Source: Myxococcales bacterium (lineage in GTDB: Bacteria > Myxococcota_A > UBA9042). From it: DNA of 64,000 nucleotides. The stretch's first letter is position 1. Each line of letters starts with the position of its first letter. The stretch is from contig SHZF01000004.1 in the NCBI GenBank assembly GCA_009692425.1, positions 10,175 through 74,174 on the forward strand, given 5' to 3'. The notes below the pieces were generated by a model. That model saw only the letters and a program-made list of their open reading frames with translations. It did no database searches and was not told the origin of the DNA. This document shows, one piece after another, positions 1 through 26,035 of this stretch. A program made the translations under genes and the position numbers.

Positions 1-655
1 CCTTGTCGTTGCAGTCCTCCTTGGTCACGCAGGCGCTGCACTTCGACTTATCGGTGCCCCCATCGAGGCACGCCTCACCGACTGCGCAATCGGCCTGCGT
101 CATGCAGCAGCCGCCCTTGTAGCTGTACTTGCAGACGTTGTAGGCGCAGTAGTCGAACGAACAGAAGACGCCGTCATCGCAATCGATGTCGTTCTGGCAC
201 GGCGAGCTGACGACGTAGTAGACGGAGCCGCGCGCCTCTGGGTTCGTGAGCTTCGTGCCGTTGTCGGAGGCGAGCGTGCACGTCAGCAGGTGCGTGCCCT
301 TGCTCATGTTGTTGAACGTGAACGAAGACGACTTGGTCGTGCCGACCGCAACATTGTCGATGTCGCACGCGACTTGCCCTAGGGTGAAGTCGCTGGTTAT
401 AAAGGCGAACTCCACCGAGGCCTTCTGGCCAGGCTGGACGAACGTAGACGACCAGTTGGCCGGCGCCATCACCTTCAGCGTCGGTTGCGTCAAGGCAAAG
501 GTCTCGACGTGGAATTCCGCATCGACGCCCGCCGCGTCGGGTGCGTGCGCGGGCGCGGGAGGCGGGCCCTCTTGCGTACACCCGGCGAGCCCGATTCCGG
601 TTAGCCCGCCCCCGGCAAGCGCGAGAACGGCGAGCGATGGCAGGCATGAGCGCAT
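1..655 (-). CDS. Cysteine-rich secreted lipoprotein, N-terminal 218 aa; the gene continues beyond the window start. Paralog of the three giant proteins at 13072-22163.
   Basis: Manual translation of the reverse strand from ATG at 655-653 gives MRSCLPSLAVLALAGGGLTGIGLAGC (lipobox LAGC) then ...CQNDIDCDDGVFCSFDYCAYNVCKYSYKGGCCMTQADC..., the same C-D-D-G-x-x-C-x-x-D-x-C repeat as the downstream giants. The reading frame stays open to position 1. The ORF track did not list it because it runs off the window. Confidence 0.7.
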   Translation of the reverse strand, partial: MRSCLPSLAVLALAGGGLTGIGLAGCTQEGPPPAPAHAPDAAGVDAEFHVETFALTQPTLKVMAPANWSSTFVQPGQKASVEFAFITSDFTLGQVACDIDNVAVGTTKSSSFTFNNMSKGTHLLTCTLASDNGTKLTNPEARGSVYYVVSSPCQNDIDCDDGVFCSFDYCAYNVCKYSYKGGCCMTQADCAVGEACLDGGTDKSKCSACVTKEDCNDK

Positions 656-9281: not shown

Positions 9282-9312
9282 TCGGCACGAACGCGAGGAG
9301 GCAGGGTCCGCC

Positions 9313-10539: not shown

Positions 10540-10563
10540 CGTGCGGACGCGGCGGGCACCGGG

Positions 10564-10604
10564 TAGCCAGCGGGTCCTCTATCTGGCTAGCCAACGCGTC
10601 CTCT
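10564..10604. promoter_or_regulatory. Imperfect 17-bp direct repeat (tagccagcgggtcctct / tagccaacgcgtcctct) that also forms a TAGCCAG...CTGGCTA hairpin, in the 142-bp gap between the second radical SAM gene and the small-ORF pair.
   Basis: Read directly from 10561-10610. Confidence 0.35.
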
Positions 10605-10680
10605 GCCTTGAAGCCAACAGCAACGTGAAGTAAGAAGCCGCCCCGGCGGCACCCTCCCCCGGCGGGACCATGGAGCGATA

Positions 10681-11199
10681 ATGAGCGAACATTCGATCGA
10701 GACCTTCGACGCCGCTGCGGGCCGCATGACGCTGGCGCTCGACACCGGGCTGTATCCGCTCGAGGTCGTCTACGGCGCGGCCTACATCTTCATCGACCGG
10801 GCGTTCGTGCTGCTCGACCGCGAAGGGGAATCGGGCCAAGGCCGCTACCTCGTGCACCTGCGCACCAAGCAGGGGGCCGACGAGACGAAGCTGCGCGCGC
10901 TGTCCGGCGAGTTCGGCAACGAGCTGCTGAGCCAGGCGTTGCGGCGCAAGGTGGTCAAGGCGAACCAGAAGATCATCGAGGAGATCACGACGCAGGCGAT
11001 CGCGGGGGCAGCAGGCGGCGCGTTGCCGACGGACTTCCTGGGCGGTGCCGACGACGGCCTCGACTTTCTCGATGACCCGCTCGGCATCGCGGTGCCGTGG
11101 GAAGAGAAGTTCAAGAAGAAGAAGCCCGATGCCGCCGACCCGACCAGTGCCGCGGCCATCGCCGACGCCGCCGGTGGTACGGGCGAGGCCAAGCCATGA
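10681..11199 (+). CDS. Hypothetical 172-aa protein: structured N-terminal ~110 aa, then an acidic/Gly-Ala-rich low-complexity tail. Candidate precursor or scaffold of the radical SAM cassette.
   Basis: Complete ORF with coding-like composition. Its stop TGA (11197-11199) overlaps the ATG (11196-11198) of the next ORF in an ATGA. Confidence 0.55.
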   Translation: MSEHSIETFDAAAGRMTLALDTGLYPLEVVYGAAYIFIDRAFVLLDREGESGQGRYLVHLRTKQGADETKLRALSGEFGNELLSQALRRKVVKANQKIIEEITTQAIAGAAGGALPTDFLGGADDGLDFLDDPLGIAVPWEEKFKKKKPDAADPTSAAAIADAAGGTGEAKP

Positions 11200-11429
11200 C
11201 GGCCGCCGTCACGGTCAAGCTGCACCGGACGCTCTACATGCAGCAGGCACTCCAGGAGGCGGGCCAGGCCTTTGCGGAACTCGCCTCGTTCGAGATCGTG
11301 CGCGACGGCGAGTACTACGCCGTGCACATCGCCGACATCGACGCCGAAGTCGAGGGTGATCTGGTCGCTGAGTTCTGCAACCACGCGCTGGTCCACACGT
11401 GGAACCGCAAACGGAAAACCGTCGCATGA
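11196..11429 (+). CDS. Hypothetical 77-aa protein (MTAAVTVKLHRTLYMQQALQEAGQAFAELASFEIVRDGEYYAVHIADIDAEVEGDLVAEFCNHALVHTWNRKRKTVA). Possible small partner/RRE-like or HxsD-like accessory protein.
   Basis: ATGA overlap at both ends (11196/11199 and 11426/11429). The track's longer ORF 11097..11429 has an Arg-rich N-terminus that I reject. Confidence 0.5.
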   Translation: MTAAVTVKLHRTLYMQQALQEAGQAFAELASFEIVRDGEYYAVHIADIDAEVEGDLVAEFCNHALVHTWNRKRKTVA

Positions 11430-12925
11430 GCTACCTCGCCGGCCTGAACCTCGACGATGTCCCCGCCGATCGGCTCGTGCCGTTCAATCACCGTGCCGTG
11501 GGCGACCGCGTGCTGGTGTCGAACGATCTCGGCGATCACGTGTTCCTAGCGCCCGGCGAGTTCCGTGCGTTCGTGACGGGCCAGGTTGCCGCCGACACCG
11601 ATCTGTACGGCAAGCTGGCAGCGGCCAACCTGTTCGCGGCCAGCATCGACGTGGGCAAGCAGGCGGAACGCTGGCGCCGCAAGAAGCAGTACCTGTTCGT
11701 CGGGCCGACGCTGCACGCGTTCGTGTTGACGCACCGCTGCAACCACGGTTGCCAGTACTGCCACTCGTCGATCGTCGGCATGACGCGCACCGACACCGAC
11801 ATGCCGATCGATGTCGCCGAGCGCGCGGTCGACCTCGCCTTCCAGACCACGAGCCCGAGCCTGACGATCGAGTTCCAGGGCGGCGAGCCGTTGGCGAACT
11901 GGGAGGTGCTGCAGCACATCGTCGAGTATGCGCGGCAGAAGAATGCGCTCGCCGGCAAGAACCTGTCGTTCGCCCTCGTCACGAACTTGTCGCTGATGGA
12001 CGAGGAGCGGCTCGACTACTTGCTCGACCGCAAGGTGCAGTTGTGCACGAGCCTCGACGGCCCGGCAGACCTGCACAACAAGGTGCGCATCTATAAGGAA
12101 GGCGACAGCCACGACCTCGTGATGAAATGGATGGCGCGCATCAACGAGCGCTACGTCGAGATGGGCCTCGACCCGAACTTGTACCGTGTCGAAGCCTTGC
12201 CGACGATCACGCGCCACGCGCTGGCGCGGCCCAAGGACGTGGTGGACCAGTACGTGGCATTGGGCTGTCGCGCGGTGTTCCTGCGCAAGCTCGATCCGTT
12301 CGGGTTTGCCGCCCGCACGGCCGGCACGCTCGGCTATTCGATGGACGAGTTCCTCACGTTCTACCAGGAGGCGGTGGACTACATCATCGAACTCAACCGG
12401 CGCGGCGTGCAGGTGATGGAACGGCACGCCGGGATCATGCTGTCGAAAATCCTCAACGACGACGAGCCGAACTACCTCGACCTGCGCACGCCGGGCGGCG
12501 CGGTGACAGGGCAGCTCGGCTATGCGCCCGACGGCGGCGTGTACTCGTCGGACGAGGGGCGCTTCGTGGCGGCGATGGGCGACGAGATGTTCCGCATCGG
12601 CACGGTGACGGACACGTACCACCAGATCGTGACGAACGCGCAGACCCGCGCGCTCGTGATGGCGGGACTCAACGACGGGCAGCCCGACTGCGTGACGTGC
12701 GTGTACAAGCCCTGGTGCGGCCAGCAGGTGGAGTACAACTACAAGACGCAGGGCTCGATCCACGGCCGGATGCGCGACTCGGTGTGGTGCCGCAAGCACA
12801 AGACGATCTTCGACTACCTGATGGGCAAGCTGGCCAAGGCGAACGCCGAAGACCTCGCGATGTTCCAGCGCTGGACCACGAACCGAACGCTGGATCATTT
12901 CATGCAGGAACGCGGAGCGTTGTAG
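11426..12925 (+). CDS. Radical SAM / SPASM-domain maturase of the AtsB/anSME-like class, 499 aa, with a ~100-aa N-terminal domain before the Cys triad.
   Basis: CNHGCQYCH (CxxxCxxC), IEFQGGEPL, C-terminal CVTCVYKPWCGQ ... WCRK (SPASM-type). The start MSYLAGLNL at 11426 overlaps the previous stop. Confidence 0.85.
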   Translation: MSYLAGLNLDDVPADRLVPFNHRAVGDRVLVSNDLGDHVFLAPGEFRAFVTGQVAADTDLYGKLAAANLFAASIDVGKQAERWRRKKQYLFVGPTLHAFVLTHRCNHGCQYCHSSIVGMTRTDTDMPIDVAERAVDLAFQTTSPSLTIEFQGGEPLANWEVLQHIVEYARQKNALAGKNLSFALVTNLSLMDEERLDYLLDRKVQLCTSLDGPADLHNKVRIYKEGDSHDLVMKWMARINERYVEMGLDPNLYRVEALPTITRHALARPKDVVDQYVALGCRAVFLRKLDPFGFAARTAGTLGYSMDEFLTFYQEAVDYIIELNRRGVQVMERHAGIMLSKILNDDEPNYLDLRTPGGAVTGQLGYAPDGGVYSSDEGRFVAAMGDEMFRIGTVTDTYHQIVTNAQTRALVMAGLNDGQPDCVTCVYKPWCGQQVEYNYKTQGSIHGRMRDSVWCRKHKTIFDYLMGKLAKANAEDLAMFQRWTTNRTLDHFMQERGAL

Positions 12926-13071: not shown

Positions 13072-16000
13072 ATGCGCCGATTCTGCGACCGTGCCCGAAT
13101 CCGCCCGTGGCGCCTTGCGCTCGCGTGGCTGGCGTGGGCGGCTGCGTGCACCGAAGAACCCTTGCAGCAAGGGTCGCTCGACGCGATTGGCGCCGACACG
13201 CGCGGAACCGGCGCCGACGCGGCCCCAGACACCGCGACGGTCGATGCCAAGCTGACGGACGCGGCCAGCGACGCCAAGTCCGACGCCGCGAACGACACGA
13301 AAACCGACGAGAAGACGGACAGCGCGGGCCCCGACAGCGCGATCGACAACGGCGCCGACGGCCTGCTGGACACGGCGCCCACCGACGATGCGGACGGGAT
13401 CGTCGATGAATTCGCTGCCGATCAGGACGGACCAGACAGCGCTGGCACCGATGCGGACGCTGCGGGCACCGTGGACGCCGGCGCGGGAGACGCGCCTCCC
13501 AACGTCAAGAGCGTGCATTCGAATGCGTGCACCGCGGCCAGCGACTGCCTGATCCCATGTGCATCGGGCAACTGCGTGGCGGGCACGTGCAGCTATCAGC
13601 CCAAAGGCAAGGGCTGCGTGGCCGACCTCGGCGGCGGCAAGGTGGGCTGCTTCGGCCCCGGCGACACGAGCGACGACAAGCCCTGCCTCGTGTGCCAGCC
13701 GTTGGTGTCGAGTACGGCGCTGACGACGGCGCTGTGGGTGAATGGCCTCGACGGCGAGCCGGGACTGCAGTTCGCCGACACCGCGGGCGCCGGCATCGGC
13801 TGGGGATTCAGCGACAAGAAGTCGAAGTCGGGCGGCAAGTCGCTGTGGTTCGGCGACCCCAAGACAGGCAACTACGCGATAGGCAAGGCGGTCGGCGGCA
13901 CGGCGACCTTGCCGGAGACGAAGGTGCCGCAGTTCAGCGGCACGCAGCCCAAGGTCGCGTTCTGGCTGTGGCTCGACACCGAGGAGTTCGACGGCCACGA
14001 CGTGCTGACGCTCGGCGTGCTCGAAGGCGGAGCCACGAAGGTCCTGTGGACGTCGGACGCGATCAAGGGCACCACGGGTGGCGCATGGCAGCGCATCGAG
14101 GCCGAACTCGTGGGCTACGGTGGCAAGACGGTGGCGCTGCAGTTCGGCTTCGACTCAAAGGACGAGGTCGCCAACACGTTCAGTGGCCCCTTCCTCGACG
14201 ACGTGGCCGTGCTGTCGGGCTGCTGCGCCGGGGCCGCGGATTGCGACGACGGCAACGCGTGCAGCGACGACAGTTGCGCGGCGGGAGCGGGCGGCCTGCC
14301 CCTGTGCAGCCACGCCAAGAAGGCCGGGTGCTGCTCGACGTCGGGCGACTGCGACGACAAGGTGTTGTGCACGTTCGATCTGTGCTCCGGGCCGGGCGGC
14401 ACGTGCAGCCACAACGCAAAGCCCGGCTGTTGCCTGACCGACAACGGCTGCGACGATGGCAACGCGCTGACGATCGACAAGTGCGTGGCTTCGAAGTGCC
14501 TGATCATCGACACCGCGTGCAAGTCGGACGCCGACTGCAAGACGAACGATCCGTGCCAGAAGGGGTCGTGCCAGGCCGGAATCTGCGCGTTCCAATCGAC
14601 GTGCTGCATCGCCGACAGCGAGTGCGACGACTTCAACCCGTGCACGATCGACGGCTGCGACAAGGGCAAATGCGTCACCACGGCATCGACGGTGCCGGGC
14701 TGCTGCTCGCCCCAGCCACTTTTCAACCAGTTCGGCAGCAGCGACGAGGGCTGGACGTCGGGCCCGGCGTCGCCCCAAAACAACGACTGGCATTGGAAGG
14801 CGCTGCCGTCCGCAGTCAGCCCGCCGGGCGCCCTGCACTTTGGATTGAAAGACAAAGACATGGGGCTTACGGCCAGCCAGCCGCAGTCCAAGATCACGAC
14901 GGCGAGCCCGCCGATCACGCTGCTGCCCGGCAAGGAAGTGACGTTCAAACTCTGGTACATGTCGGACATGACGGCCGCCAGTGGCAACGTGCGGGTGTTC
15001 GCGGTGGTCGACGGCAAGGAGGTGACGTTCGGCTACCTGAGCCTGAACACGAGCAAGAAGTGGACGACGTTCGGCCCGTATGACCTCTCGCCGGCGATGG
15101 GCAAGACGATCCAGATCAAGCTGGAGATGACGCTGACACCCGTTGGCTCGGTCACGGGCACCGGGCTGTGGGTCGACGACTTCGAGGTGAATTCGACGTG
15201 TCAGGCCAAGAAGTGCGCGGCCTCGGGCACCTGCGGCATCGGTGCGATGCCATGCGTGGCCGGCGTGTGCACGGACGGTCAGTGCACGTACCCGAACGCC
15301 TGCTGCGTCACGAGTGCCGACTGCGCCGACCAGAACCTGTGCACAAGCGACGTGTGCGTGAACACGAAGTGCCAGTTCAACCCGATCGCGAAGTGCTGCA
15401 TGGGCAGCGGCGACTGTGCCGACGGCAACCCGTGCACGCAAGACATCTGCCCAGCGCCCGGCCAGATCTGCCAGTGGCCGCCGGTGCCCGGCTGCTGCCT
15501 GTCGTCGGTCGAATGCAATGACAGCAACGCGTGCACGAAGGACGGCTGCATCCTGAACAAGTGCGTCAACGAGAACACGTGCTGCAAGGTCGACAAGGAC
15601 TGCGACGACAGTGAGACAAAGTGCACGGTCGACAAGTGCGTGGCCCAGATCTGCACGCACACGTCGACGGGCGCGGCCGGTTGCTGCTCGCCGATCGTGT
15701 GGGAGAACGACTTCGATCAGGGCGACCTCAAGGGCATCAAGGTGCAGAACTCCGCTGGCGCCAAGGGCTGGAACCACTGGCCGAACGCGCAGTTGTCGAA
15801 GTCGGGCAAGGGCGTGCTGTACTATGGCGATCCCGCGGTCGGCAATTTCGACTTCAGCTTGTCGAGCGGCACGGCCAAGACGCTGGCGATCCAGTTGCCG
15901 GTGTCGACGCCGTCGCACATGACGTTCTGGCTCTACATGGACACCGAGCAGGGCCCGCCCTACGACTCGCTCGCCGTGCGCGTCTACGTCGATGGCGCCC

Positions 16001-16191
16001 AAAATCCGGTGTGGGAAAAGAACCAGAACGGCTACACGGTGCTGAAATGGACCGAGATCAAGATCGACCTCGCGAAGTGGGCCGGCAAGTCCATCGAGAT
16101 CGAGTTCTACTTCAACACGGTCGATTCGGTGGGCAACAGCGGCAAGGGCGTCTTCGTCGATGACCTGAAGGTCGTGACGGCGTGTCCATGA
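13072..16191 (+). CDS. Giant secreted lipoprotein, 1039 aa. It has a D/A/T-rich linker, then several MAM-like beta-sandwich modules separated by C-x-D-x-N-x-C-T-x-D-x-C cysteine-rich repeats.
   Basis: MRRFCDRARIRPWRLALAWLAWAAAC signal and lipobox. Repeats CDDGNACSDDSC, CDDKVLCTFDLC, CDDGNALTIDKC, CDDFNPCTIDGC, CADQNLCTSDVC, CADGNPCTQDIC, CNDSNACTKDGC. Modules with LWFGDP / FWLWLDTE / GPFLDDVAV...C and a C-terminal GKGVFVDDLKVVTAC (MAM-like ...DD..(V/I)...C ending). Confidence 0.85.
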   Translation: MRRFCDRARIRPWRLALAWLAWAAACTEEPLQQGSLDAIGADTRGTGADAAPDTATVDAKLTDAASDAKSDAANDTKTDEKTDSAGPDSAIDNGADGLLDTAPTDDADGIVDEFAADQDGPDSAGTDADAAGTVDAGAGDAPPNVKSVHSNACTAASDCLIPCASGNCVAGTCSYQPKGKGCVADLGGGKVGCFGPGDTSDDKPCLVCQPLVSSTALTTALWVNGLDGEPGLQFADTAGAGIGWGFSDKKSKSGGKSLWFGDPKTGNYAIGKAVGGTATLPETKVPQFSGTQPKVAFWLWLDTEEFDGHDVLTLGVLEGGATKVLWTSDAIKGTTGGAWQRIEAELVGYGGKTVALQFGFDSKDEVANTFSGPFLDDVAVLSGCCAGAADCDDGNACSDDSCAAGAGGLPLCSHAKKAGCCSTSGDCDDKVLCTFDLCSGPGGTCSHNAKPGCCLTDNGCDDGNALTIDKCVASKCLIIDTACKSDADCKTNDPCQKGSCQAGICAFQSTCCIADSECDDFNPCTIDGCDKGKCVTTASTVPGCCSPQPLFNQFGSSDEGWTSGPASPQNNDWHWKALPSAVSPPGALHFGLKDKDMGLTASQPQSKITTASPPITLLPGKEVTFKLWYMSDMTAASGNVRVFAVVDGKEVTFGYLSLNTSKKWTTFGPYDLSPAMGKTIQIKLEMTLTPVGSVTGTGLWVDDFEVNSTCQAKKCAASGTCGIGAMPCVAGVCTDGQCTYPNACCVTSADCADQNLCTSDVCVNTKCQFNPIAKCCMGSGDCADGNPCTQDICPAPGQICQWPPVPGCCLSSVECNDSNACTKDGCILNKCVNENTCCKVDKDCDDSETKCTVDKCVAQICTHTSTGAAGCCSPIVWENDFDQGDLKGIKVQNSAGAKGWNHWPNAQLSKSGKGVLYYGDPAVGNFDFSLSSGTAKTLAIQLPVSTPSHMTFWLYMDTEQGPPYDSLAVRVYVDGAQNPVWEKNQNGYTVLKWTEIKIDLAKWAGKSIEIEFYFNTVDSVGNSGKGVFVDDLKVVTACP

Positions 16192-18452
16192 GTGCACAGC
16201 CGATCGACGGCGGGATTTGCGGGGAACGCACGGCGCGGTCTGGGCCGGAGCGGGCGGCCCTGTGGAGCATGAGCGCGTGGGCGGCCATCGCGTTGTCCGT
16301 CGCGGCGTGCGGGGGCGAGGACTCGCCGAAGAAAGCCGACGCCGATGCTGCCAGCGACGGGGCGGGAGCAGGCGCCGAGACGGCCGACGATCTGGCTCGC
16401 GTGGCCGACATCGACGAACCCGACAGTGCGGCACGTAGTGATGCCGCGGGCACCGATCTGACTGTGAACGACGCCGCCCCCGCCGACGAGGCGACGCCCG
16501 ACGTGCCGCCGGACGTGCCGCTTGCCGACCTCGGTCAGGACGTCCCGACGCCGGTGGACATTGCGCAGTGTGCGACGGGCACCGACTGCGCCGGCCTCCT
16601 GAAGTTGCAGCCGTGCGAACAGGCCACCTGCGTTGCCGGCCAATGCAAGCCGGAGCCGAAACCGGACCAGTGCTGCACCGATGCCGACTGCAACGATCAG
16701 GGCGAGTGCGTGGCGGGCAAGTGCGACACGGGGGCGCATGCGTGCCTGTACACGCCGATCCCGAACTGCTGCAGCGGCAAGGTGACGCTGCTCAAGACCT
16801 CGCTTGAGGGCGCCCCGTTCGAAGACGTGAGCGCCCAGGAGTCGCCCCAGAACGGCAATGTCGCGTGGGGCGAATCGACCACGCGCGCCCACTCCGGCAA
16901 GAAGGCGCTGTACTTTGGCAACGCCTGCAAGACGTACGACAACAGCCTGAACGTGGCGAACGGTTGCAAGGTCGGCGGTGCGTCGACCCCGATCCAGTCG
17001 GCGCTCACGACGAAGGAGCACGCGCTGCCCAAAGACAAGAAGGCGCAGTTGCACTTCTGGCTGTGGCTCGACACGGAATCGCCGTATGCCGACACGCTGC
17101 CCAAGGGGACGTGTGCGACCCCGTGCGTGGCGGGCGCGGCGTGCATTCAGGTCAACGGTCAGTCGCAGTGCGTGCCGGAAAAGGATGTGCTGACCGTCAG
17201 CGTGCTGCAGGGCGAGACCGCGACGTCGGTGTTCTCGTCGCTGCAGATCGGCAAGTCGACGAAGGGACAGTGGCTGCACGTCGCGGTCGACCTGTCGAAG
17301 TGGGCCGGCCACTCGATCAAGGCGCAGTGGGCGTTCGCAACGGGTACGAACCTGAAGAACGGCTACGAGGGCATCTACCTCGACGACCTCGTGATCGAGA
17401 CGAACTGCACGGAAAAAGGCGCGTTCTGCGACGAAAAGGCGCCATGCCAGGATGACGCCAACGCGTGTACTCAGGACGTGTGCACGAAGTACGCCAACAA
17501 CGCGGGACTCGGCGTGTGCTTTGCCGACAAGAAGGTCGGTTGCTGCACGGTCGTGTCCGAGTGCGCGGACGGCAACGCGTGCACCCTCGACGCCTGCAAT
17601 GCAAGCCAATGCTCGTGGAAGCCGGACGCGACGAAGCCGGCATGCTGCAAGGCCGAAGTGCTGGCGCCGCTGGAGGACTTCGAATCCGGCACGCTCGACG
17701 TGTGGTCGGTGTTCGAGTCCAACTCGACCATCTCGAAGTGGCGGCTGCACCCGACCGGAGGCAACGCGGGCCAGGCCCTGTACTTCGGCACCGAAGGCCT
17801 CGACACTTACGCGGACCCGGCGCTCGGCAAGGACTTGGGACCCAAGGGCACGATCTGCATGGACAAGGTCAAGATCAAGCAGGGCTCGCTCCACGACCTC
17901 GTAACGTTCGACCTGCAGATGGAGACGGAGTGGACCGGCTTGCCTGCGACGACCTACAAGAATCCGCCGGTCGCTGGTGGCAAAAAATTCGACGCGCTGG
18001 CTGTCTCCGTGTACCACAACGGCACGTTTACTGAGGTGTGGTCGTCGGATGCGGTGCTCGGAACGACGGGGGGACAGTGGTTGCCGGTGACGGTCGCGCT
18101 CGACGCCTTTCAGGGCCAGACGGTGCAGTTGTGCTTCGCTTTCGACGCGGGCGACGGCGCGGTCAACGACAAGGCCGGCGTGCGACTCGACAACGTGCTG
18201 GTCAAGGTCGCATGCAGCAAAAAGCCCTGCTATTTCGCAACGGAATGCAAGGCACTGTCTTGTGGCACGTGCAAGGTGCCGATATGCGACGGGGCCGGTT
18301 GCCAGTGCGTTGCGGTGCCGGATTGCTGCACGGCGGCGCAGGACTGTGACGACGGCGAAACAAAGTGTACGATCGACAAATGCGGGGCCGACGGCAAGTG
18401 CGTGCACGAGCCAACGGGGTTCGCCGATTGCCCGAACGCGGGCGGCAAGTAG
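16188..18452 (+). CDS. Giant lipoprotein paralog 2 (~755 aa), with the same MAM-like plus Cys-rich repeat architecture. The start could be ATG 16188 (ATGA overlap with the upstream stop), GTG 16182 or ATG 16269.
   Basis: Signal MSAWAAIALSVAACGG. Motifs KALYFGNACKTYDNS, FWLWLDTESPYAD, YEGIYLDDLVIETNC, CADGNACTLDAC, CDDGETKCTIDKC. Confidence 0.8.
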   Translation: MSAQPIDGGICGERTARSGPERAALWSMSAWAAIALSVAACGGEDSPKKADADAASDGAGAGAETADDLARVADIDEPDSAARSDAAGTDLTVNDAAPADEATPDVPPDVPLADLGQDVPTPVDIAQCATGTDCAGLLKLQPCEQATCVAGQCKPEPKPDQCCTDADCNDQGECVAGKCDTGAHACLYTPIPNCCSGKVTLLKTSLEGAPFEDVSAQESPQNGNVAWGESTTRAHSGKKALYFGNACKTYDNSLNVANGCKVGGASTPIQSALTTKEHALPKDKKAQLHFWLWLDTESPYADTLPKGTCATPCVAGAACIQVNGQSQCVPEKDVLTVSVLQGETATSVFSSLQIGKSTKGQWLHVAVDLSKWAGHSIKAQWAFATGTNLKNGYEGIYLDDLVIETNCTEKGAFCDEKAPCQDDANACTQDVCTKYANNAGLGVCFADKKVGCCTVVSECADGNACTLDACNASQCSWKPDATKPACCKAEVLAPLEDFESGTLDVWSVFESNSTISKWRLHPTGGNAGQALYFGTEGLDTYADPALGKDLGPKGTICMDKVKIKQGSLHDLVTFDLQMETEWTGLPATTYKNPPVAGGKKFDALAVSVYHNGTFTEVWSSDAVLGTTGGQWLPVTVALDAFQGQTVQLCFAFDAGDGAVNDKAGVRLDNVLVKVACSKKPCYFATECKALSCGTCKVPICDGAGCQCVAVPDCCTAAQDCDDGETKCTIDKCGADGKCVHEPTGFADCPNAGGK

Positions 18453-18521
18453 GGGCCGAAGTGCTCGCCAGCGGGGATCGGGACCTCGCAGGCAGCCTCA
18501 GCGTGTGTGTGGAGGGATGTG

Positions 18522-21500
18522 ATGGTGTGCAATGATCCAGTGGGCAAGGGCAATCTCGCGGCGTGCGCACAAGGGGCCCGCCAGTTTCTTGCGGGCCTGG
18601 GGCTCCTCGCGGCCGCTGTCGCGTGCGGGGACCCGGTCGCGACGGCCAAGACCGCGCCGGCAACGCCCGACACGACTGACCCAGATGGTGGGCAAGATGG
18701 CACCGAACCGACCGACGCACCTGCCGTGGTCGACACTGCGGCGCCGCTGGATGGCGATGCCGCCATCGAAGCGAAGGGTCCCGAACTGACCGATGCACCG
18801 GACATCCAGACGGCCCCGGACGTCGGTTGCCTGACGGACAACCAATGCGTGGGTGCCGTGCCCGTGACCGGTTGCACCGTGGCCGTCTGCCAGAAAGGCC
18901 TGTGCATCTTGGGGCCCAAGCCGGGGACGTGTTGCGACGACGCGCCGTGCGACGATGGCGTGCAGTGCACGAAGGACAAATGCGACGTGGCGACGAACAC
19001 GTGCCAGAACGCCCCGATTGCCGGGTGCTGCCAGAACCAGAAGAAATACTTGAACGTTGGCTTCGAGCAGGCGCCGGTGGGCGTTGCCGCGACGTACGAG
19101 GGCTTCGTGCAGAGCCCCGACCCGAAGGACGCCTCCTACCCGAACGGCAACGTGAAGTGGCAGGTCGAGACGCGGCGCGCGCACTCGGGCACCCACTCCC
19201 TGTACTTCGGCAATGAATGCGGAACGTACGACTCGGAGATGAAGGGGGCGCTCGCCTGCAAGGAAAGTGCGGTCTCGCTGGCCCTCTACACCGCGCTGAA
19301 GTCGAGTGAAGTGCAGATTCCGGCGGGCGAAGCCGCGCTGCTGTCGTTCTGGATGTGGGTCGACACGCAGCCGGTGCTGACGCAGTTGCATTGGACCCAG
19401 ACGCAGAAAGGGGAAAATGATTGCTCGCCGAAATGCGGCATCGGCGCCACCTGCGCGGCCAACGCGAACGGCAAGACGGAGTGTGTCAAGCAGCCCCAGA
19501 AGGCCGGCACCTGCAAGGTGCCGTGCGATCCCGGAACGACGTGTGTCGATGTCGGCGGCGGCAACTCGGCGTGCGTCAACGAGAGCGACGTGATGACGGT
19601 GCGCATCAACGGGGCGGTCAAGCCCACGCTGACCTCGACGGAATTCGACAAGTCGACCAAGGGGCAGTGGAAGCATTTCGTTGTCAACCTCGCGGAGTAC
19701 GCGGGCAAGTCGGTTCAGATCCTCTGGGAATTCAAGACGAACACAAATCGCAACGCCTACGAGGGCATCTACCTCGACGACGTAGGCATCGAAACGTACT
19801 GCGTGAAGAAGGACGAGAAGTCCGAGGGCTTCGCCAGCTGCGACGAGAAGACCGCGTGCCCCGACGACAAGAAGGAGTGCTCAGCCGACGTTTGCACGCC
19901 GTTCACGAACCTGAAGGTTCAGGGCCTGTGCCTGTACGACAAGGTGGCGAACTGCTGCGCGGGGTCGATCGACTGCGACGACGCGAAGGACTGCACGGTC
20001 GATGCGTGCAACAAGGCCGTCGGCAAGCCCACGGGGTCGTGTTCGCACAAGCCCGACTCGAACAAGGAGCAGTGCTGCAAGGCCGAAAAACTGTTCGGCG
20101 ACAACTTCGAAGCGGGCAGCTTGGCGGGATGGGCGACGGTGCTGAGCAACTCGCAGCAGGTCCTGTGGCAACTCCACAAGTCCGGCGGCACGGGCGGCGG
20201 CGCGGCGATGTACTTCGGCAACGCAGCACAGACCAACTACGACGACCCGACGATCAAGCCGAACGGGCCGAAGGGGCGTGTGTGCTCGGTCAAGAAGGTC
20301 AAGCTGACAGACACTGCGGCCTACAACGTCGCAAAGTTCCAGCTGAAGATGGAGACGGAGTGGTCGGGCAAGAAGAAGGAGAGCTACGTCAACCCGGCCG
20401 TCGTGCAGGGCCAGCCGGTCGAGAAGGTCGACTACTTGAACGTGGAAGTTCGCGTCGCTGGCGTCGTGCAGACCGTGTGGTCGTCAGACTCGGTGTACGG
20501 CACGACCGAAGGGCAGTTCCTGCCCGTGACGGTGGACCTGGACAAGTTCGCCGGCAAGGAGGTGGAGTTGTGCTTCTACTTCGACGCGGGCGATTCGGCG
20601 GCGAACGCAGCCAAGGGCATCACGATCGATGACGTGCAGATTGCGGTCGCGTGCGAAAAGGAAGTCTGCACGGTCGCCGAACACTGCGCAGCGGAGTGCG
20701 ACGCTGTGCTCGACACGCCATCGTGTGAGGCAGGCAAGTGCGTCTGCACGAAGATCCCCGGCAAGTGCAAGGACGACGCGTCATGCGACGACAAGGACAG
20801 TTGCACCGACCAGGCGTGCAAGTTGGGCAAGTGCGAATACACCATGAAGTCGCCAACGTGCTGCGCAGCAAAGACGCCTTACCAGGAGTCGTTCGATGCG
20901 GGCGTGGCCGGGGCGGCGCTGCCAACCGGGTGGAAGGTGACGGGCCTGCCGGGCACGGCGCTGAATGGCAAGCCGTATGACCAGACGATCAAGTGGAATA
21001 TCACGGACTTGAAGGCGAAGTCACCCCAATTTTCACTCTATTTCGGCAACAACGGCACCTACAACGCGGGGGCCTCGGCGCCCGGCGGGCTGGCGCGCAG
21101 CCCCGAAGTGACGCTGCCGGCCAACGGGACCACGCTCCTCACCTTTGCGCTGTTCCTGTCGACCGAGTGGGACCCGAATCCGAAGGACCCGACCAAAGTG
21201 TTCAAGGCGCCGCCCCCGGGCATCGTCGTCGACCGGCTGCGGGTGGGTCTGAACGACCCCAAGCAAGCCGACGCGGCCAAGGCCAATGCCTGGCTGTGGG
21301 ACAGCTACGCGATCGAAGGGACGACGGCGGGCAACTGGCAGGTCGTCGTCGTCGCGGTACCAGACGCCTGGAAGGGCAAGACCGCCAAGCTGCAGTTCGA
21401 GTTCGACGCCGGCCATGACAACAACAACATCTACGAGGGCGCGTACATCGACAACGTGCACTTGACGACGGTCTGCGATGTGCCGGAATGCGTCGAGGAC

Positions 21501-22163
21501 AAGAAGTGCGTGCCGGCGGTTCCCGACGTGTGCAAGAAGTACTACTGCTCGGCCCAGACCGTTGCCAACCAGCTGTCGTTTGCGTGCAAGGCCGACTTCA
21601 AGCCCGGCCCGACCTGCTGTTCTTCGTCGGTGGCGCTGGCGGCGGAGACGTTCGAATCGGCCAAGCTCGGCGCCTGGGCGGGGTCTTGCAACAACACGCT
21701 CGTGAAGTGGCAGGCGTCGCCGCACAAGTACTTGGCTGGCCTGTACGAAGCCTACATGGGCAACCAGGAGAAGCAGAACTACGCCGACGGCACGTCCATT
21801 GTGGTGTGCAGCCTGACGTCGCCGCTGGTGACGCTCTCGTCGGACCTCAAAAAGGAGGCCTTCTTGCAGTTCAAGGCGTGGATCGACGTCGAGACGAACT
21901 CTTTCGAGAAGTTGCGGGTCGTGGCGACGACGTTTGCCGGAAACCAGAAGCTGACGAAGGTGATTTGGGACAAGGCGGTGGCCAAGGACATGACCTTGGC
22001 GGAGTACAAGATGGCGATCGAGAAGAAGATCAACGTCTCGGAATTCAAAGGAAAGGGCGCCGTGTCGTTCAGCTTCGAATTCGACTCCCTCGACGCCAAG
22101 AAAAACGCCGACTTCAAGGGCGTGTACCTCGACGACCTGACGGTGACTGAGCCGTGCCTGTAG
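18522..22163 (+). CDS. Giant lipoprotein paralog 3 (1213 aa): four MAM-like modules interleaved with Cys-rich repeats.
   Basis: GGAGG RBS 6 nt before ATG 18522; the track's GTG 18507 is an alternative. Signal LAGLGLLAAAVAC. Motifs HSLYFGNECGTYDSE, FWMWVDTQP, YEGIYLDDVGIETYC, CDDAKDCTVDAC, NIYEGAYIDNVHLTTVC, FKGVYLDDLTVTEPC. Confidence 0.85.
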   Translation: MVCNDPVGKGNLAACAQGARQFLAGLGLLAAAVACGDPVATAKTAPATPDTTDPDGGQDGTEPTDAPAVVDTAAPLDGDAAIEAKGPELTDAPDIQTAPDVGCLTDNQCVGAVPVTGCTVAVCQKGLCILGPKPGTCCDDAPCDDGVQCTKDKCDVATNTCQNAPIAGCCQNQKKYLNVGFEQAPVGVAATYEGFVQSPDPKDASYPNGNVKWQVETRRAHSGTHSLYFGNECGTYDSEMKGALACKESAVSLALYTALKSSEVQIPAGEAALLSFWMWVDTQPVLTQLHWTQTQKGENDCSPKCGIGATCAANANGKTECVKQPQKAGTCKVPCDPGTTCVDVGGGNSACVNESDVMTVRINGAVKPTLTSTEFDKSTKGQWKHFVVNLAEYAGKSVQILWEFKTNTNRNAYEGIYLDDVGIETYCVKKDEKSEGFASCDEKTACPDDKKECSADVCTPFTNLKVQGLCLYDKVANCCAGSIDCDDAKDCTVDACNKAVGKPTGSCSHKPDSNKEQCCKAEKLFGDNFEAGSLAGWATVLSNSQQVLWQLHKSGGTGGGAAMYFGNAAQTNYDDPTIKPNGPKGRVCSVKKVKLTDTAAYNVAKFQLKMETEWSGKKKESYVNPAVVQGQPVEKVDYLNVEVRVAGVVQTVWSSDSVYGTTEGQFLPVTVDLDKFAGKEVELCFYFDAGDSAANAAKGITIDDVQIAVACEKEVCTVAEHCAAECDAVLDTPSCEAGKCVCTKIPGKCKDDASCDDKDSCTDQACKLGKCEYTMKSPTCCAAKTPYQESFDAGVAGAALPTGWKVTGLPGTALNGKPYDQTIKWNITDLKAKSPQFSLYFGNNGTYNAGASAPGGLARSPEVTLPANGTTLLTFALFLSTEWDPNPKDPTKVFKAPPPGIVVDRLRVGLNDPKQADAAKANAWLWDSYAIEGTTAGNWQVVVVAVPDAWKGKTAKLQFEFDAGHDNNNIYEGAYIDNVHLTTVCDVPECVEDKKCVPAVPDVCKKYYCSAQTVANQLSFACKADFKPGPTCCSSSVALAAETFESAKLGAWAGSCNNTLVKWQASPHKYLAGLYEAYMGNQEKQNYADGTSIVVCSLTSPLVTLSSDLKKEAFLQFKAWIDVETNSFEKLRVVATTFAGNQKLTKVIWDKAVAKDMTLAEYKMAIEKKINVSEFKGKGAVSFSFEFDSLDAKKNADFKGVYLDDLTVTEPCL

Positions 22164-22190: not shown

Positions 22191-23138
22191 TTGAGACAGG
22201 CATTGTCGTGCCGACCGAAGTCCATGCCCGCCCTCTCTGACCGCAGCTTCAATCCCGGCGCGTGGGCGCGGCTCGGCTTGGTCGCAGTCGGCCTGGGCGT
22301 GGTCGCGCTGGCGGTGTGGGCGACGACGTTTTGGCACGAGGACGCGATCGAAGTGCCGCGCCTGCTCGACAAGCGCTTCGATGAGGCACCGGGCCGGCCG
22401 GGCAGCACGACCACGCGCATCTCAAAGCTGGGGGCCAAGGCGGTGCCGACGCTGATCCAGGACCTCGGTTCTGGCATTGTGACGGAGCGCCAGAAGGCCT
22501 TGGAACTGCTGTCGACGATCGACGACCCGCGCGTGGTGCCGGCCCTTGCCCACGGCCTGGTGGACCGCGATCTGGGCGTGCGGTTGATCGCCTTGGCGGG
22601 ACTCGGGCGCACCGGCAAAGCGGAGGCGGCGGCGGTGCTGTGGGGCCTCACCGAAGCGCCGAGTGAACTGGTGCGCTACCGGGCGCTGGTGGGCATCGGC
22701 CTGACCGGGCAACAGCCGGATGCCGACCGGCTGTTGCGCGACCTGCCCGGCGTGATCGGCCACGAGCGCTACGTGCAGGCCTGGGCGGCGGGCCGCATCC
22801 TGCGCCGGCTGGCGAACCCGGACCGCCAAGGCTACCTGCCCGGAGCGCCCGTGCCGGCCGACGAAGCCGCAGCCGCGCAGTTGCAGGCAGACGTCGATTT
22901 GGTGCACGCCGCGCTCGACAAATTGGAATCGCCGCGCCAGAACGCCATCTTGTTGTCTGAACGCACGGACGTCGCGTTCGCCACTTGGGACCAAGGGCAC
23001 CAGATCGCGCTTCAGGTGGTCGCCGTCAACGGGCCCCACGCGGTGCGGCGCGGGTCGGCCGAGTCGGTGGTCGCACCGCCACCTCCGTCGAAACGGGGCT
23101 TGGAGTTGCGCGGAGAGCGGGTCCCGGTGGCACGCTGA
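22191..23138 (+). CDS. Membrane-anchored HEAT/PBS-lyase-type repeat protein. The start is probably the internal Met at 22224.
   Basis: One N-terminal TM helix, then AVPTLIQDL...ALELL..DDPRVVPALAHGLVDRDLGVRLIALAGLGR repeats. Confidence 0.6.
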   Translation: MRQALSCRPKSMPALSDRSFNPGAWARLGLVAVGLGVVALAVWATTFWHEDAIEVPRLLDKRFDEAPGRPGSTTTRISKLGAKAVPTLIQDLGSGIVTERQKALELLSTIDDPRVVPALAHGLVDRDLGVRLIALAGLGRTGKAEAAAVLWGLTEAPSELVRYRALVGIGLTGQQPDADRLLRDLPGVIGHERYVQAWAAGRILRRLANPDRQGYLPGAPVPADEAAAAQLQADVDLVHAALDKLESPRQNAILLSERTDVAFATWDQGHQIALQVVAVNGPHAVRRGSAESVVAPPPPSKRGLELRGERVPVAR

Positions 23139-23283
23139 TTCCAGCGGCGGTCACGAATCCCGCGCGGCAGACGTACCCGGGCGGCAGCGTCAAGTTCTGT
23201 GAAGTGCAGAGTTCAGTCCACGCGCCGGTATGCTACAAAGCGTGCAGCATGCGGCGCGACCGCAGCCCGACCGGAGTCGCAAC

Positions 23284-23985
23284 ATGGCGCGCATTCTGAT
23301 CATCGACGACGACGTCCGGCTCGGCGCTCTGCTGGAGCGGTTGTTCAAGCCCGAAGGCTTTCAGGTAACACTCGTCACCGACGGCCTGCAGGGAGTGCGC
23401 CGGGCGTGCGCCGAGGTGTTCGACATGGTCGTGCTCGACGTGATGCTGCCCGGGCTCGACGGCTTCGAGGTGCTGCGCCGCATCCGGCAACAGTCCTCGG
23501 TGCCGGTCCTGATGCTGACGGCCAAAGGCACGGACAACGACCGCGTGGTGGGCCTTGAACTCGGCGCCGACGATTACCTGCCCAAGCCGTTCAATCCCCG
23601 TGAACTCGTGGCGCGCATCAAGGCGGTGTTGCGGCGGGCCGAGCCTGGCATGGCGGCGACCAAGGCCGAAGTGCTGCGCGTCGGCGACCTGGCGATCGAC
23701 GCCGCGCGGCGGGAGGCGTCGGTGCGCGGCACCACCGTCCAATTGACGACCACGGAATTCGACTTGCTGCGCTGCTTCATGCGCTACCCGGGTCAGGTGT
23801 TGAGCCGCGATGCGCTGATGGACATGCTGCGCGGCGTGGGCTACGCGGCGTACGATCGTTCGATCGACGTGCATGTGAAGAACCTGCGCGCGAAGATCGA
23901 GACGGACTCGCGCACGCCCAAGTACATCAAGACAATCTGGGGCACCGGCTACATGCTCGCCGCCGACGCGGTCGCTGCCGAGTAG
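23284..23985 (+). CDS. OmpR-family response regulator (receiver + winged-helix)
   Basis: MARILIIDDD..., D-box VLDVMLPGLDG, C-terminal TTTEFDLL...IKTIWGTGY winged helix. Confidence 0.9.
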   Translation: MARILIIDDDVRLGALLERLFKPEGFQVTLVTDGLQGVRRACAEVFDMVVLDVMLPGLDGFEVLRRIRQQSSVPVLMLTAKGTDNDRVVGLELGADDYLPKPFNPRELVARIKAVLRRAEPGMAATKAEVLRVGDLAIDAARREASVRGTTVQLTTTEFDLLRCFMRYPGQVLSRDALMDMLRGVGYAAYDRSIDVHVKNLRAKIETDSRTPKYIKTIWGTGYMLAADAVAAE

Positions 23986-23991
23986 GCACCC

Positions 23992-25179
23992 ATGCCGCAT
24001 CAGGACTTGTACGGCGCGCCCGATGGCCCGGCCCCCGTTGCCGTGCGCGCGCCCGTGCAGGCTCCGGGGCTGTCGCGTGGCGAATGGACCGTCATCGGGG
24101 TCGGCGGCGCGGGCCTGTTGGCGGTCGGCGTGGCAGCGGTGCTGGCGGCGCTGGATGCGAACCCGAGCGGACACCTGGCCATCTTTGCCGAGTTGTTGAT
24201 TGCGGCGTGCGCCCTGACGGTCCTGCTCATCATGTCAGTCACGCTGTCGCAGCGGCTTGCCGTGCGCGTTCGCATGTTGCGCGAGGTGGCACAGGAGCTC
24301 GGCGGCGGGGACCTCGGCGTCCGCGCGCCGGTCGAATCGGCCGACGACCTGGGCAAGCTCGGCCAGTCCCTCAACGTGATGGCGGATCGGATTGCGCGCG
24401 TACTTCAGGCGCAGCGCGACCTGCTGTCGGGTGTTTCGCACGAATTGCGCAGCCCACTCGCGCGCATCGAAGTCGCCATCGAGTTGATCCGCATGGAATT
24501 CGAAGATGGCCGCCGCAACGCGCCGGGCGGTGCCGACCGGCGCAAAAGCCAGGGCGAGGAGTTGGTGGCGGAAATCCAGATGGAGGTCGGCCTGCTCGAG
24601 CGCCACATCGAGCGCCTGCTCGACGCGCAGCGGGTCGGAGTCGATCGCGTGCTGGTGCAGCGCGAACTCGTGCGGGTCGATGAGTTGCTCGGCCAGATCC
24701 TGGATCGCGAGCAGCACCGGTTGAGCCATCTCGGCTTTGCGGTCGAGCGCAGCCTCGAACTGTACGATGGCAAAGTCTCAGGCGACCCCAACGCCCTGGA
24801 CCGGGCGTTCTCGACGCTGATTGAAAACGTGGTGCAGCACGCCCAGCACGGGGGCAGCGCCCGCAGCGTGCGGATGGAGTCGCGACGCGACACGATGGGC
24901 GTGGTTGTGCGCGTGCTCGACCGCGGGCCTGGGCTGGCGCAGGAGCAGTGCGCACGCGTGTTCGAGGCCTTCTTCCGCGTGGACCCGAGCCGCACAGAGC
25001 AAACTGGAGGCACAGGACTTGGTTTGTACCTCGTCAAGAAGATTTCCGAGGCCCACGGCGGCACGGCGCGCGCCCACCCGCGGGCGGGCGGGGGCCTCGT
25101 GATCGAAGTGCGCCTGCCCTTGCACGGCCAGCGCCAGGCCAAAGAGACGGTCAAGGTCCAGGCGGTCAGTGGTGACTGA
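23992..25179 (+). CDS. Sensor histidine kinase (TM + HAMP + HisKA + HATPase_c)
   Basis: HELRSPLARIEVAIELI H-box; GGTGLGLYLVKKISEAHGG G-box. Confidence 0.85.
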   Translation: MPHQDLYGAPDGPAPVAVRAPVQAPGLSRGEWTVIGVGGAGLLAVGVAAVLAALDANPSGHLAIFAELLIAACALTVLLIMSVTLSQRLAVRVRMLREVAQELGGGDLGVRAPVESADDLGKLGQSLNVMADRIARVLQAQRDLLSGVSHELRSPLARIEVAIELIRMEFEDGRRNAPGGADRRKSQGEELVAEIQMEVGLLERHIERLLDAQRVGVDRVLVQRELVRVDELLGQILDREQHRLSHLGFAVERSLELYDGKVSGDPNALDRAFSTLIENVVQHAQHGGSARSVRMESRRDTMGVVVRVLDRGPGLAQEQCARVFEAFFRVDPSRTEQTGGTGLGLYLVKKISEAHGGTARAHPRAGGGLVIEVRLPLHGQRQAKETVKVQAVSGD

Positions 25180-26035
25180 TCGTCGGCCGCTCCACGCGCT
25201 GACCGTCGATGTCGAAGAGTGGTTCCACATTCTGGACGCGGGTCCGCGGCCCGAGCGCTGGGAGCACTTGCCGAGCCGCATCGATGTCGGGCTGGCGCGC
25301 ATTTTCGGCCTGTGCGAGCGCTTTGGCGTCCATGCGACGTTTTTCGTGCTGGGTTGGGTGGCACGGCGCCGGCCCGATGTCGTCGCCGAGATCGTGCGCC
25401 GCGGCCACGAGGTCGGCTCGCACTCGTTCGGCCACCGCGTGTTGCGCGAGCTCGGACCCGACGGCTTTGCCCGGGACCTCGACGCCTCGCTCGATGCGAT
25501 CGCGCGCGCGGGCGGCAACGTGCGGGCCTACCGGGCCCCGGGATTCTCACTGACAACGCAGAGTTCCTGGGCGTTTGGCGTGCTGGCCGACCGCGGCATC
25601 GAACTCGACGCATCGCTGTTCCTAGGTCCGCGCGCTCACGGCGGCTGGTCGCTCGACCGCAGCGGGCCGTTCGCAGTCGTGCTTGGCGACGGGCGCACGG
25701 TGATCGAAATCCCGACGGTGCCGCTGCGGGTGCTGGGCCAGGCGCTGCCGTTTTCCGGTGGCGGCTACCTGCGCCTGTTGCCGACCGCGCTCATCGACCA
25801 CGGCTTTGCCTGCGCCGAGCGGGCGGGCCAGCCCGTGTGCGTCTACGTGCACCCGCGCGAACTCGACCCCGACCCACCTGAGTTGCCCTTGCCGATCGCA
25901 CGGCGCTTCAAGTACTACGTCGGCCTGGACACGGTGGCCCCCAAGCTAGAGCATCTGTTGGCGCGCCATCGCTTCGGCACCGTGTCTGCCGTCGCCGCCG
26001 CCGCCACGCTCGGGGCGCCACTGGAGTTGCGGTGA
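25169..26035 (+). CDS. Polysaccharide deacetylase family protein (NodB fold with DUF3473-like C-terminus, the type found in PEP-CTERM/exosortase loci); GTG start.
   Basis: LTVDVEEWFH..., HSFGHRVL, and the overall similarity pattern of the TIGR03006-type deacetylases, from memory. Confidence 0.75.
   Translation: MVTDRRPLHALTVDVEEWFHILDAGPRPERWEHLPSRIDVGLARIFGLCERFGVHATFFVLGWVARRRPDVVAEIVRRGHEVGSHSFGHRVLRELGPDGFARDLDASLDAIARAGGNVRAYRAPGFSLTTQSSWAFGVLADRGIELDASLFLGPRAHGGWSLDRSGPFAVVLGDGRTVIEIPTVPLRVLGQALPFSGGGYLRLLPTALIDHGFACAERAGQPVCVYVHPRELDPDPPELPLPIARRFKYYVGLDTVAPKLEHLLARHRFGTVSAVAAAATLGAPLELR

Follow-up and report, generated by a model that had tools for sequence, protein, structure and literature searches.

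We analysed a window of 64 kb (about 70% GC) from the metagenome-assembled genome (MAG) of a Myxococcales bacterium (assembly GCA_009692425.1, contig SHZF01000004.1, positions 10,175 to 74,174; positions below count from the first letter of this stretch), in which three tandem genes on the plus strand, here named g1, g2 and g3, encode large predicted lipoproteins. The open reading frames (ORFs) of g1 (13072..16191), g2 (16188..18452) and g3 (18522..22163) encode 1039, 754 and 1213 amino acids (aa), respectively, in agreement with the original prediction, which had described three giant tandem lipoprotein genes at this place. ORF lists of such a GC-rich window are noisy and contain many long spurious ORFs on both strands, which would favor the view that the repeats described below are an artefact of a wrong frame or of low-complexity sequence. 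We regard this view as already refuted. The three consecutive plus-strand frames have a third-codon-position GC content (GC3) of 0.86-0.90, the g1 product is identical to the deposited hypothetical protein EXR79_02080 (149-kb contig of the 'Myxococcales bacterium' MAG), more than 40 full-length orthologues carry invariant Cys residues, the structure models are confident, and curated hidden Markov models match these very frames.

The g1 protein consists, in this order, of a signal with the lipobox Cys26, an acidic tether of 126 aa, a Cys-rich cap, module 1, five Cys units, module 2, five further Cys units and module 3. The g2 protein has its lipobox at Cys41, two modules and Cys-rich spacers. 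The g3 protein has its lipobox at Cys35 and four modules, and its first ~690 aa resemble g2 (39% identity). The 3′ end of g1 reads GCG TGT CCA TGA, and the ATG within ATGA is usable as the start of g2, so that the overlap of the two genes proposed earlier can stand. A second ATG at 16269, giving a shorter signal peptide, is nevertheless a plausible alternative start for g2, because the orthologous g2 genes begin 55-120 bp past g1.

The lipoprotein signals and the linker rich in Asp, Ala and Thr that had been predicted are borne out by the motif reading. The lipoboxes AAAC (g1), VAAC (g2) and AVAC (g3) each lie behind a hydrophobic stretch with Arg upstream and fit [LVIA][ASTVI][GAS]C, and each is followed by a Cys-free tether rich in Ala, Asp, Thr, Gly and Pro (126, 86 and 67 aa in g1, g2 and g3). 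Lipobox and acidic tether are kept in all six orthologues inspected, and residues 1-141 of g1 are disordered in the full-length model. The mature proteins contain 72 (g1), 50 (g2) and 64 (g3) Cys residues, all even numbers; in 28 aligned orthologues, all Cys residues of g1 from Cys153 on are invariant and the lipobox Cys26 is kept in at least 90%. Because the counts are even and the residues invariant, the sequences point to an oxidising compartment. The gene for signal peptidase II, lspA, is present in the window. Its ORF (4854-5837, minus strand) encodes 327 aa, of which the Peptidase_A8 match spans residues 185-310 only, implying an N-terminal extension of ~180 aa or a mis-set start; the lspA homologue at another locus (L086), which adjoins lgt and uppS, is likewise long (302 aa).

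Each protein contains repeated modules. The borders of nine modules were set from the motifs of the original prediction, and a profile built from the g1 orthologues and six window modules was run on the six-frame translation of the whole 64 kb. It found exactly nine modules, three in g1, two in g2 and four in g3, and no further module in any of the six frames. In g1, they lie at 13684..14223 (module 1, aa 205-384, E = 1.4e-44), 14698..15201 (module 2, aa 543-710, E = 7.9e-37) and 15679..16188 (module 3, aa 870-1039). In g2, they lie at 16764..17408 (module 1, aa 193-407) and 17640..18215 (module 2, aa 485-676), and in g3 at 19023..19802 (module 1, aa 168-427), 20070..20654 (module 2, aa 517-711, also found by Pfam), 20856..21476 (module 3, aa 779-985) and 21612..22160 (module 4, aa 1031-1213), all on the plus strand; module 2 of g2 and modules 2 to 4 of g3 were defined by both alignment and profile. 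Module 1 of g2 and module 1 of g3, both absent from the training set, were recovered at E = 4e-28 and 1e-16, respectively. These two are also the only ones with a Cys-rich insertion behind the DTE strand (~40 aa in g2 and ~70 aa in g3, for example GTCATPCVAGAACIQVNGQSQCV), which the other seven lack.

When aligned, the nine modules have in common a CC at the N-terminus and a Trp, both invariant, the motifs LYFG, F-x-L-W-x-D-T-E, G-K and F-x-F-D, and [LIV]DD[LIV]-x-[VI]-x-x-x-C with invariant Asp and final Cys, confirming together with the profile that the modules start with CC and end in DD...C. Only three Cys residues per module are invariant, the initial CC and the terminal one. The internal FW(L/M)W(L/V)DT(E/Q) block that had been described holds in its strict form in four of the nine modules (FWLYMDTE in module 3 of g1) and is degenerate in the other five.

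The same prediction had likened the arrangement of these modules to that of eukaryote-type MAM domains, and this comparison holds in part. The only curated sequence model passed by the modules is InhA-like_MAM (PF20773), with 36.8 (g1), 34.1 (g2) and 56.0 (g3) bits against the Pfam gathering cut-off of 26.9; it also matches 28 of 28 g1 orthologues, module 3 gives the best match within g1, and the best stretches align only positions ~84-175 of the 191 profile positions, namely the C-terminal half. In accordance with that, InhA2 of Bacillus anthracis (PDB 4YU5) was the best match (E = 0.0015) when PDB sequences were searched with the g1 family profile, which gave weak InhA and carbohydrate-binding module (CBM) matches only; the same search with g3 gave no match. 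In InhA, a single domain of this kind accompanies an M6 metalloprotease, whereas the trio has no catalytic domain and two to four modules on Cys-rich stalks. The modules also come near the NCBIfam model for choice-of-anchor J (NF038128, cut-off 30), a domain found in surface proteins of many bacteria, scoring 29.7 bits in g1 (borderline), 25.4 in g2 and 21.4 in g3, all below the cut-off, and one orthologue (P0006) is named choice-of-anchor J by NCBI. That family is defined by its association with C-terminal sorting anchors, whereas the anchor of the trio is the N-terminal lipobox.

The eukaryotic family itself, PF00629 (meprin, RPTPmu, neuropilin, enteropeptidase), did not match g1-g3 at E ≤ 1 or any of 28 orthologues at E ≤ 0.01; one distant relative (P0048) has a precomputed match. 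The likeness lies in a Cys before F-E/D at the start and [LIV]DD[LIV]...C at the end. MAM domains have four conserved intradomain Cys residues forming two disulfides, unlike the three invariant terminal Cys residues of the present modules. Some orthologues match carbohydrate-related models, CBM_4_9 in two of them and SGBP_B_XBD in some. No peptidoglycan-binding domain was found in g1-g3 by the Pfam scan. The module as such is common: among 1.84 billion representative proteins, the profile matched 12,367 at E ≤ 1e-3, of which 715 reached E ≤ 1e-30, and single proteins had as many as eight modules. We found no paper linking MAM domains to myxobacterial lipoproteins, and nothing specific on PF20773 or choice-of-anchor J in this context.

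Module 3 of g1 modelled alone with AlphaFold (aa 866-1039) gave a jelly roll with a mean predicted local distance difference test (pLDDT) score of 92.8 and a predicted template modelling score of 0.89. Its fold matches were the N-terminal region of reelin (score 14.4), the accessory domain of GH31 (14.0), CBM61 (13.8), the MAM domain of SR-C (13.5), the gingipain K1 adhesin (13.5), the MAM domains of RPTPmu (13.4) and neuropilin (13.2), and InhA (11.6; 1.9 Å, 21% identity). Foldseek ranked the MAM domain of meprin beta first (TM 0.70), followed by LAST-MAM and CBM61. The model thus has the jelly roll of MAM domains and is equivalent in fold to the MAM-like domain of InhA2. The modelled fold therefore justifies the term 'MAM-like', and MAM/CBM-like jelly roll is the more accurate one, because CBM61, CBM22 and the reelin subrepeats match equally well. 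A structural metal site is typical of MAM and CBM sandwiches. The Glu of the DTE motif and the Asp, Asn and DD residues are conserved in every module and appear to resemble such a site; if calcium is bound by these proteins, the module would be no less probable as its place than the Cys units, for which calcium binding had been suggested.

The full-length model of g1, made with 28 orthologues in the alignment (mean pLDDT 75.7), shows three beta-sandwiches joined by small hairpin units. Its best PDB matches were reelin repeats, followed by tandem CBM22, Elapor1, enteropeptidase and SGBP-B. Reelin (PDB 6A48, 2E26, 5B4X) shares the layout of a jelly-roll subrepeat, a small disulfide module and a second jelly-roll subrepeat. 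The likeness is architectural only, as sequence identity is ~10% and reelin is a secreted animal glycoprotein with EGF modules, not the units described next.

Between the modules lie the Cys-rich units. The expression C-x-D/N-x-x-x-C-T/S-x-D-x-C has 14 matches in the six frames of the 64 kb, 13 of them in the trio and in a partial gene at the start of the window (2-655, described below) and one elsewhere; with the Cys residues invariant in the orthologues, the 12-residue units noticed earlier are real and conserved. The core of 12 residues sits in units of ~32 aa bounded by CC doublets. Spacer 1 of g1 (14224..14697) holds five such units of the form CC-x5-C-x-D-x-N-x-C-T-x-D-x-C-x(4-9)-C, and spacer 2 (15202..15678) holds another five, including CADQNLCTSDVC, CADGNPCTQDIC, CNDSNACTKDGC and CDDSETKCTVDKC. 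In the full-length model, each g1 unit is a pair of beta hairpins (pLDDT ~70-85). Further units lie in the inter-module spacer of g2 (17409..17639; CQDDANACTQDVC, CADGNACTLDAC), in its C-terminal Cys-rich tail (18216..18449; CDDGETKCTIDKC) and between modules 1 and 2 of g3 (19803..20069; CPDDKKECSADVC, CDDAKDCTVDAC), all on the plus strand.

A Myxococcus Cys-rich repeat (TIGR02232) had been suggested for these units, and neither this model nor the TraA repeat TIGR04201 matched the trio or the partial gene at E ≤ 1. The model that fits instead is Dicty_CTDC (PF00526, gathering cut-off 27), which scored 21.8 bits in g1 (E = 1.6e-4; residues 518-537 in spacer 1) and 20.4 bits in g2 (E = 4.4e-4), without a match in g3, and which matches 27 of 28 g1 orthologues at E ≤ 0.01 (best 1.4e-15). 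By profile comparison the units correspond to Dicty_CTDC, under threshold in g1 and g2 and clear at the family level. The Dictyostelium proteins of this family (EcmA, EcmB and PsiA, matrix and signal proteins) share the core C-x-D-x-N-x-C-T-x-D-x-C in tandem units of ~24-32 aa. In Dictyostelium, Dicty_CTDC occurs in secreted and matrix proteins (PMC4931340), often beside a lectin-like PA14 domain (PMC3325183), whereas the trio is bacterial and lipoprotein-anchored and pairs the repeat with MAM-like domains. The repeat also occurs in MAGs of Phycisphaerae, Chitinophagaceae, Acidobacteriota and even archaea, and single Myxococcota MAGs carry many separate Dicty_CTDC loci (L005, L028, L046 and L061 in CAZLMW01; L027, L049, L075 and L080 in CAINDP01). 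Several MAGs with such loci bear the label 'uncultured Enterobacteriaceae', apparently a taxonomic error.

Within the phylum, TraA of Myxococcus xanthus offers the nearest functional precedent, by analogy. It is a myxobacterial envelope protein in which a beta-sandwich likewise stands on a stalk of Cys-rich tandem repeats. In TraA, a lectin-like PA14 domain is borne on a Cys-rich repeat region that was proposed to act as a rigid presenting stalk (PMC3325183). TraA differs from the trio in its PA14 sandwich, its repeat model (TIGR04201), its C-terminal anchor (MYXO-CTERM) and its single recognition domain, against the two to four modules of the trio. One alternative is that the three proteins form a protein-protein recognition or adhesion complex, the MAM-like modules making homophilic or heterophilic cell-cell contacts as in RPTPmu, meprin and TraA. 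Some of the best-matching folds are MAM domains from adhesion receptors, and the three distinct paralogues are strictly retained. Nevertheless, we consider such a complex improbable, for the orthologues are ~40-50% identical along their full length and lack the hypervariable recognition domain of TraA, TraA being hypervariable where the trio is evenly conserved; PF00629 itself gives no match, and the three invariant Cys residues per module are not the MAM pattern.

The relatives of the trio indicate its age. About 45 full-length orthologues of g1 (33-52% identity, ~990-1090 aa) were found, all from MAGs of Myxococcota or 'Deltaproteobacteria'. At least four further Myxococcota MAGs carry 1:1:1 orthologues of the trio as a whole (loci L001, L002, L005 and L089), in the same order g1-g2-g3 in L001, L002 and L005. 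Identity to the respective orthologues is 41-47% for g1, 46-49% for g2 and 36-40% for g3, compared with 29% between g1 and g2, 24% between g1 and g3 and the 39% between g2 and g3 mentioned above. The duplications therefore took place before these lineages diverged. On these comparisons the trio is an old, conserved operon born of an ancient duplication, which refutes the recent duplication first proposed. That all three copies have been kept distinct speaks for roles that are not redundant. A contig scan seeded on the Cys-repeat peptides returned mostly unrelated CTDC proteins, with L005 as the sole true trio locus, and the trio appears to be restricted to Myxococcota MAGs.

The partial gene on the minus strand at the start of the window (2..655) had been counted as a fourth paralogue within 22 kb. 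Its visible part (218 aa) has the lipobox LAGC and one CDDGVFCSFDYC unit, and the module profile finds no MAM-like module in these 218 aa. Its likeness to the trio is ~40% identity over ~49 aa of the Cys repeat only; residues 1 to 150 have the look of a small sandwich of the Ig-like type, for which the Pfam matches are insignificant. The fragment found nothing at E ≤ 1e-3 in a collection of 5.8 billion proteins, not even itself. Its GC3 of 0.83 is coding-like, and the deposited MAG may leave this gene uncalled or annotate it as a pseudogene. A large gene in the syntenic position at L086 was considered as a relative and proved to encode an unrelated membrane protein. From its visible sequence, the gene at 2-655 is thus a Cys-repeat lipoprotein, and the reading as a fourth paralogue is not supported. 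A more convincing additional paralogue, judged by similarity, is P0080 (EXR79_05970) of the same MAG, with 29% identity over 63% of g1.

Downstream of the trio, five further plus-strand genes follow. They encode a membrane-anchored HEAT-repeat protein (22191..23138), an OmpR-type response regulator (23230-23985), a HAMP/HisKA histidine kinase (23992-25179), an XrtA-type polysaccharide deacetylase with DUF3473 (25169-26035) and a FadL/Toluene_X-like outer-membrane protein (26032-27348). The first three are syntenic with the trio in relatives, the response regulator being 78-81% identical there, and the order from the HEAT protein through regulator and kinase to the deacetylase is kept in L001, L002, L005 and L089; the deacetylase and the FadL-like protein mark the end of the conserved block. 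Upstream, the relatives carry an FHA-sigma54 activator, a GT-C-like protein and a TIGR04551/Alginate_exp-like barrel (L001 316-4584; L002 4532-9886; L088 4233-9713; L089 4327-9708). The second of these (729-795 aa) is multi-pass, with an RDEAFYF motif and a weak PMT_2 match, and is read as a GT-C glycosyltransferase; its position beside genes for Thr/Asp-rich tethers makes O-glycosylation of the tethers possible. The barrel (534-621 aa) matches Alginate_exp and scores 156 bits with TIGR04551, below the cut-off of 300. A scan for sigma70 promoters and terminators over 12.7-26.2 kb found fewer sites than in shuffled sequence, and a search for sigma54 promoters, made because relatives carry the sigma54 activator, found none upstream of g1 or its orthologues.

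The trio could serve nutrient capture, as surface glycan-binding proteins (SGBPs) like those of Bacteroidota, which would retain polysaccharide or prey debris on the cell so that it can be taken up through the neighbouring AlgE/TIGR04551-like and FadL-like porins. The module fold matches CBM61, CBM22, CBM4 and the xyloglucan-binding protein SGBP-B, the orthologue matches to CBM_4_9 and SGBP_B_XBD agree with it, and outer-membrane barrels flank the trio in relatives. The conserved block, however, contains no glycoside hydrolase, lyase, TonB-dependent transporter or sugar-utilisation regulator, and the deacetylase and GT-C protein of the locus are typical of polymer synthesis or modification, so that nutrient capture seems unlikely.

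In the present window, the place of the three upstream genes of the relatives is occupied by a radical S-adenosylmethionine (radical SAM) cassette of the Hxs type (6708-12925, plus strand), which ends 146 bp from g1. It comprises a large HxsC4-like radical SAM gene (6708-9281; an 857-aa ORF that probably starts later, as relatives have 655-658 aa), an HxsC-like radical SAM gene (9163-10539), hxsD (10681-11199; 52.6 bits against a cut-off of 50), an ORF of 77 aa (MTAAVTVKLHRTLYMQQALQEAG..., ~11196-11429) and hxsB (11399-12925; TIGR03978, 502 bits against a cut-off of 370). A gene of 77-81 aa has the same cassette position at three other loci (L085, L086 and L087), and it could encode a second HxsD-like protein or the substrate of the cassette. 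The identity of HxsB is 62-82% in a set of over 100 clusters, whose names come from MAGs of Myxococcota, Binatia and the Acidobacteriota type.

HXS systems act against phages, with HxsB and HxsC as the maturases of the periplasmic effector HxsA, a protein with His-Xaa-Ser (HxS) repeats and a peptidoglycan-binding domain (PMC13128918). The canonical order HxsD-HxsB-HxsC-HxsA is found in 99.6% of cases, and in 99.7% in Pseudomonadota, the effector being encoded within the cassette (PMC13128918). The order in the present cassette differs from this, and HxsA is missing: no frame of the window contains a run of at least three HxS units, and L046, a cassette locus of the MAG CAZLMW01, has no HxS repeats either. 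The trio might accordingly be thought to take the place of HxsA, with its Cys-rich regions cross-linked or modified by the adjacent maturases. HxsB, HxsD and two radical SAM genes lie directly upstream on the same strand, the window lacks an HxsA bearing HxS repeats, the canonical effector is periplasmic and encoded in the same cassette (PMC13128918), and the relatives of HxsB among NCBIfam models include maturases of Cys-rich peptides. We nevertheless consider this very improbable. Elsewhere, unrelated genes lie behind this five-gene cassette, at L085 (MBOAT/AlgX), L086 (toxin-antitoxin, type II secretion system) and L087; in CAZLMW01 the cassette (L046) and the trio (L005) are on different contigs; the trio loci L001, L002, L088 and L089 are without radical SAM genes; and HxsB keeps 70-82% identity from phylum to phylum, whereas the trio appears confined to Myxococcota MAGs. 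An HxsA-type effector role for the trio was likewise rejected, as the proteins have no HxS repeats, no peptidoglycan-binding domain and no kept linkage to hxsB, hxsC or hxsD. Because the cassette is self-contained, stands beside different genes from locus to locus and lies apart from the trio in relatives, we treat the adjacency as incidental, a local rearrangement, and the cassette lacking HxsA as a separate observation.

An adhesion or recognition role, as first proposed for these proteins, can reasonably be inferred from this material. Taken more specifically, sequence and models suggest, with a little better than even confidence on our part, that the trio constitutes tethered, multivalent and probably heteromeric binding or scaffold lipoproteins of the cell surface, whose ligand would most likely be a polysaccharide or glycoconjugate. 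The proteins would be exported, lipidated at the N-terminal Cys and oxidised. The disordered acidic tether (67-126 aa) would hold each protein off the membrane, and rigid stalks of disulfide-knotted Dicty_CTDC units would space the two to four jelly-roll modules, the three proteins together forming a multivalent, probably heteromeric array or scaffold at the cell surface. The ligand may be the cell's own matrix polymer, or a polysaccharide or glycoconjugate on the surface of prey or particles; we lean toward a polysaccharide because the locus encodes a deacetylase and, in relatives, a GT-C enzyme and an AlgE-like porin. The trio would be expressed as one unit with the membrane HEAT protein and the OmpR-type two-component system, within a conserved envelope locus that includes the polysaccharide deacetylase and the FadL-like outer-membrane protein.

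Several points weigh against this proposal. The family is known from genes alone, all relatives being MAGs. In the models, the fold is one common to protein-binding (MAM, the ligand-binding domain of Eph, reelin) and glycan-binding (CBM) domains and does not discriminate the class of ligand. The conserved block has no glycoside hydrolase, TonB-dependent transporter or obvious polymer synthase. The sigma54 activator, the GT-C protein and the AlgE-like porin have no homologue in the window and are therefore not obligatory neighbours. Cotranscription is deduced solely from the short gaps (-4, 69 and 27 bp), and sorting to the inner or outer leaflet of the outer membrane is not predictable here.

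A more far-reaching version is tentative. The trio may be the structural core of an undescribed, lineage-specific surface system of uncultured freshwater Myxococcota, composed of the sigma54 activator, the GT-C protein, the AlgE-like porin, three heteromerising reelin-like lipoproteins, the HEAT protein, the two-component system and the deacetylase, in which the GT-C enzyme would glycosylate the Thr/Asp-rich tethers and the lipoproteins would organise a secreted polymer into a matrix or bind prey. We rate this as rather doubtful. The trio itself is uncharacterised, yet it is built of known and widespread domain types and is not a new kind of system.

The analysis assigns domains, a fold and a conserved context to 'hypothetical proteins' typical of an uncultured freshwater Myxococcota lineage. 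The modules belong to a large family, and nothing found here contradicts current understanding, so that the value lies in annotation and in the generation of hypotheses. The design known from TraA and the matrix proteins of Dictyostelium, in which a Cys-rich stalk bears a lectin-like beta-sandwich, recurs here in a multi-module, lipoprotein-anchored form. If the proposed binding or scaffold role is true, the locus would provide a handle on how uncultivated predators or particle-colonisers build or use their surface.

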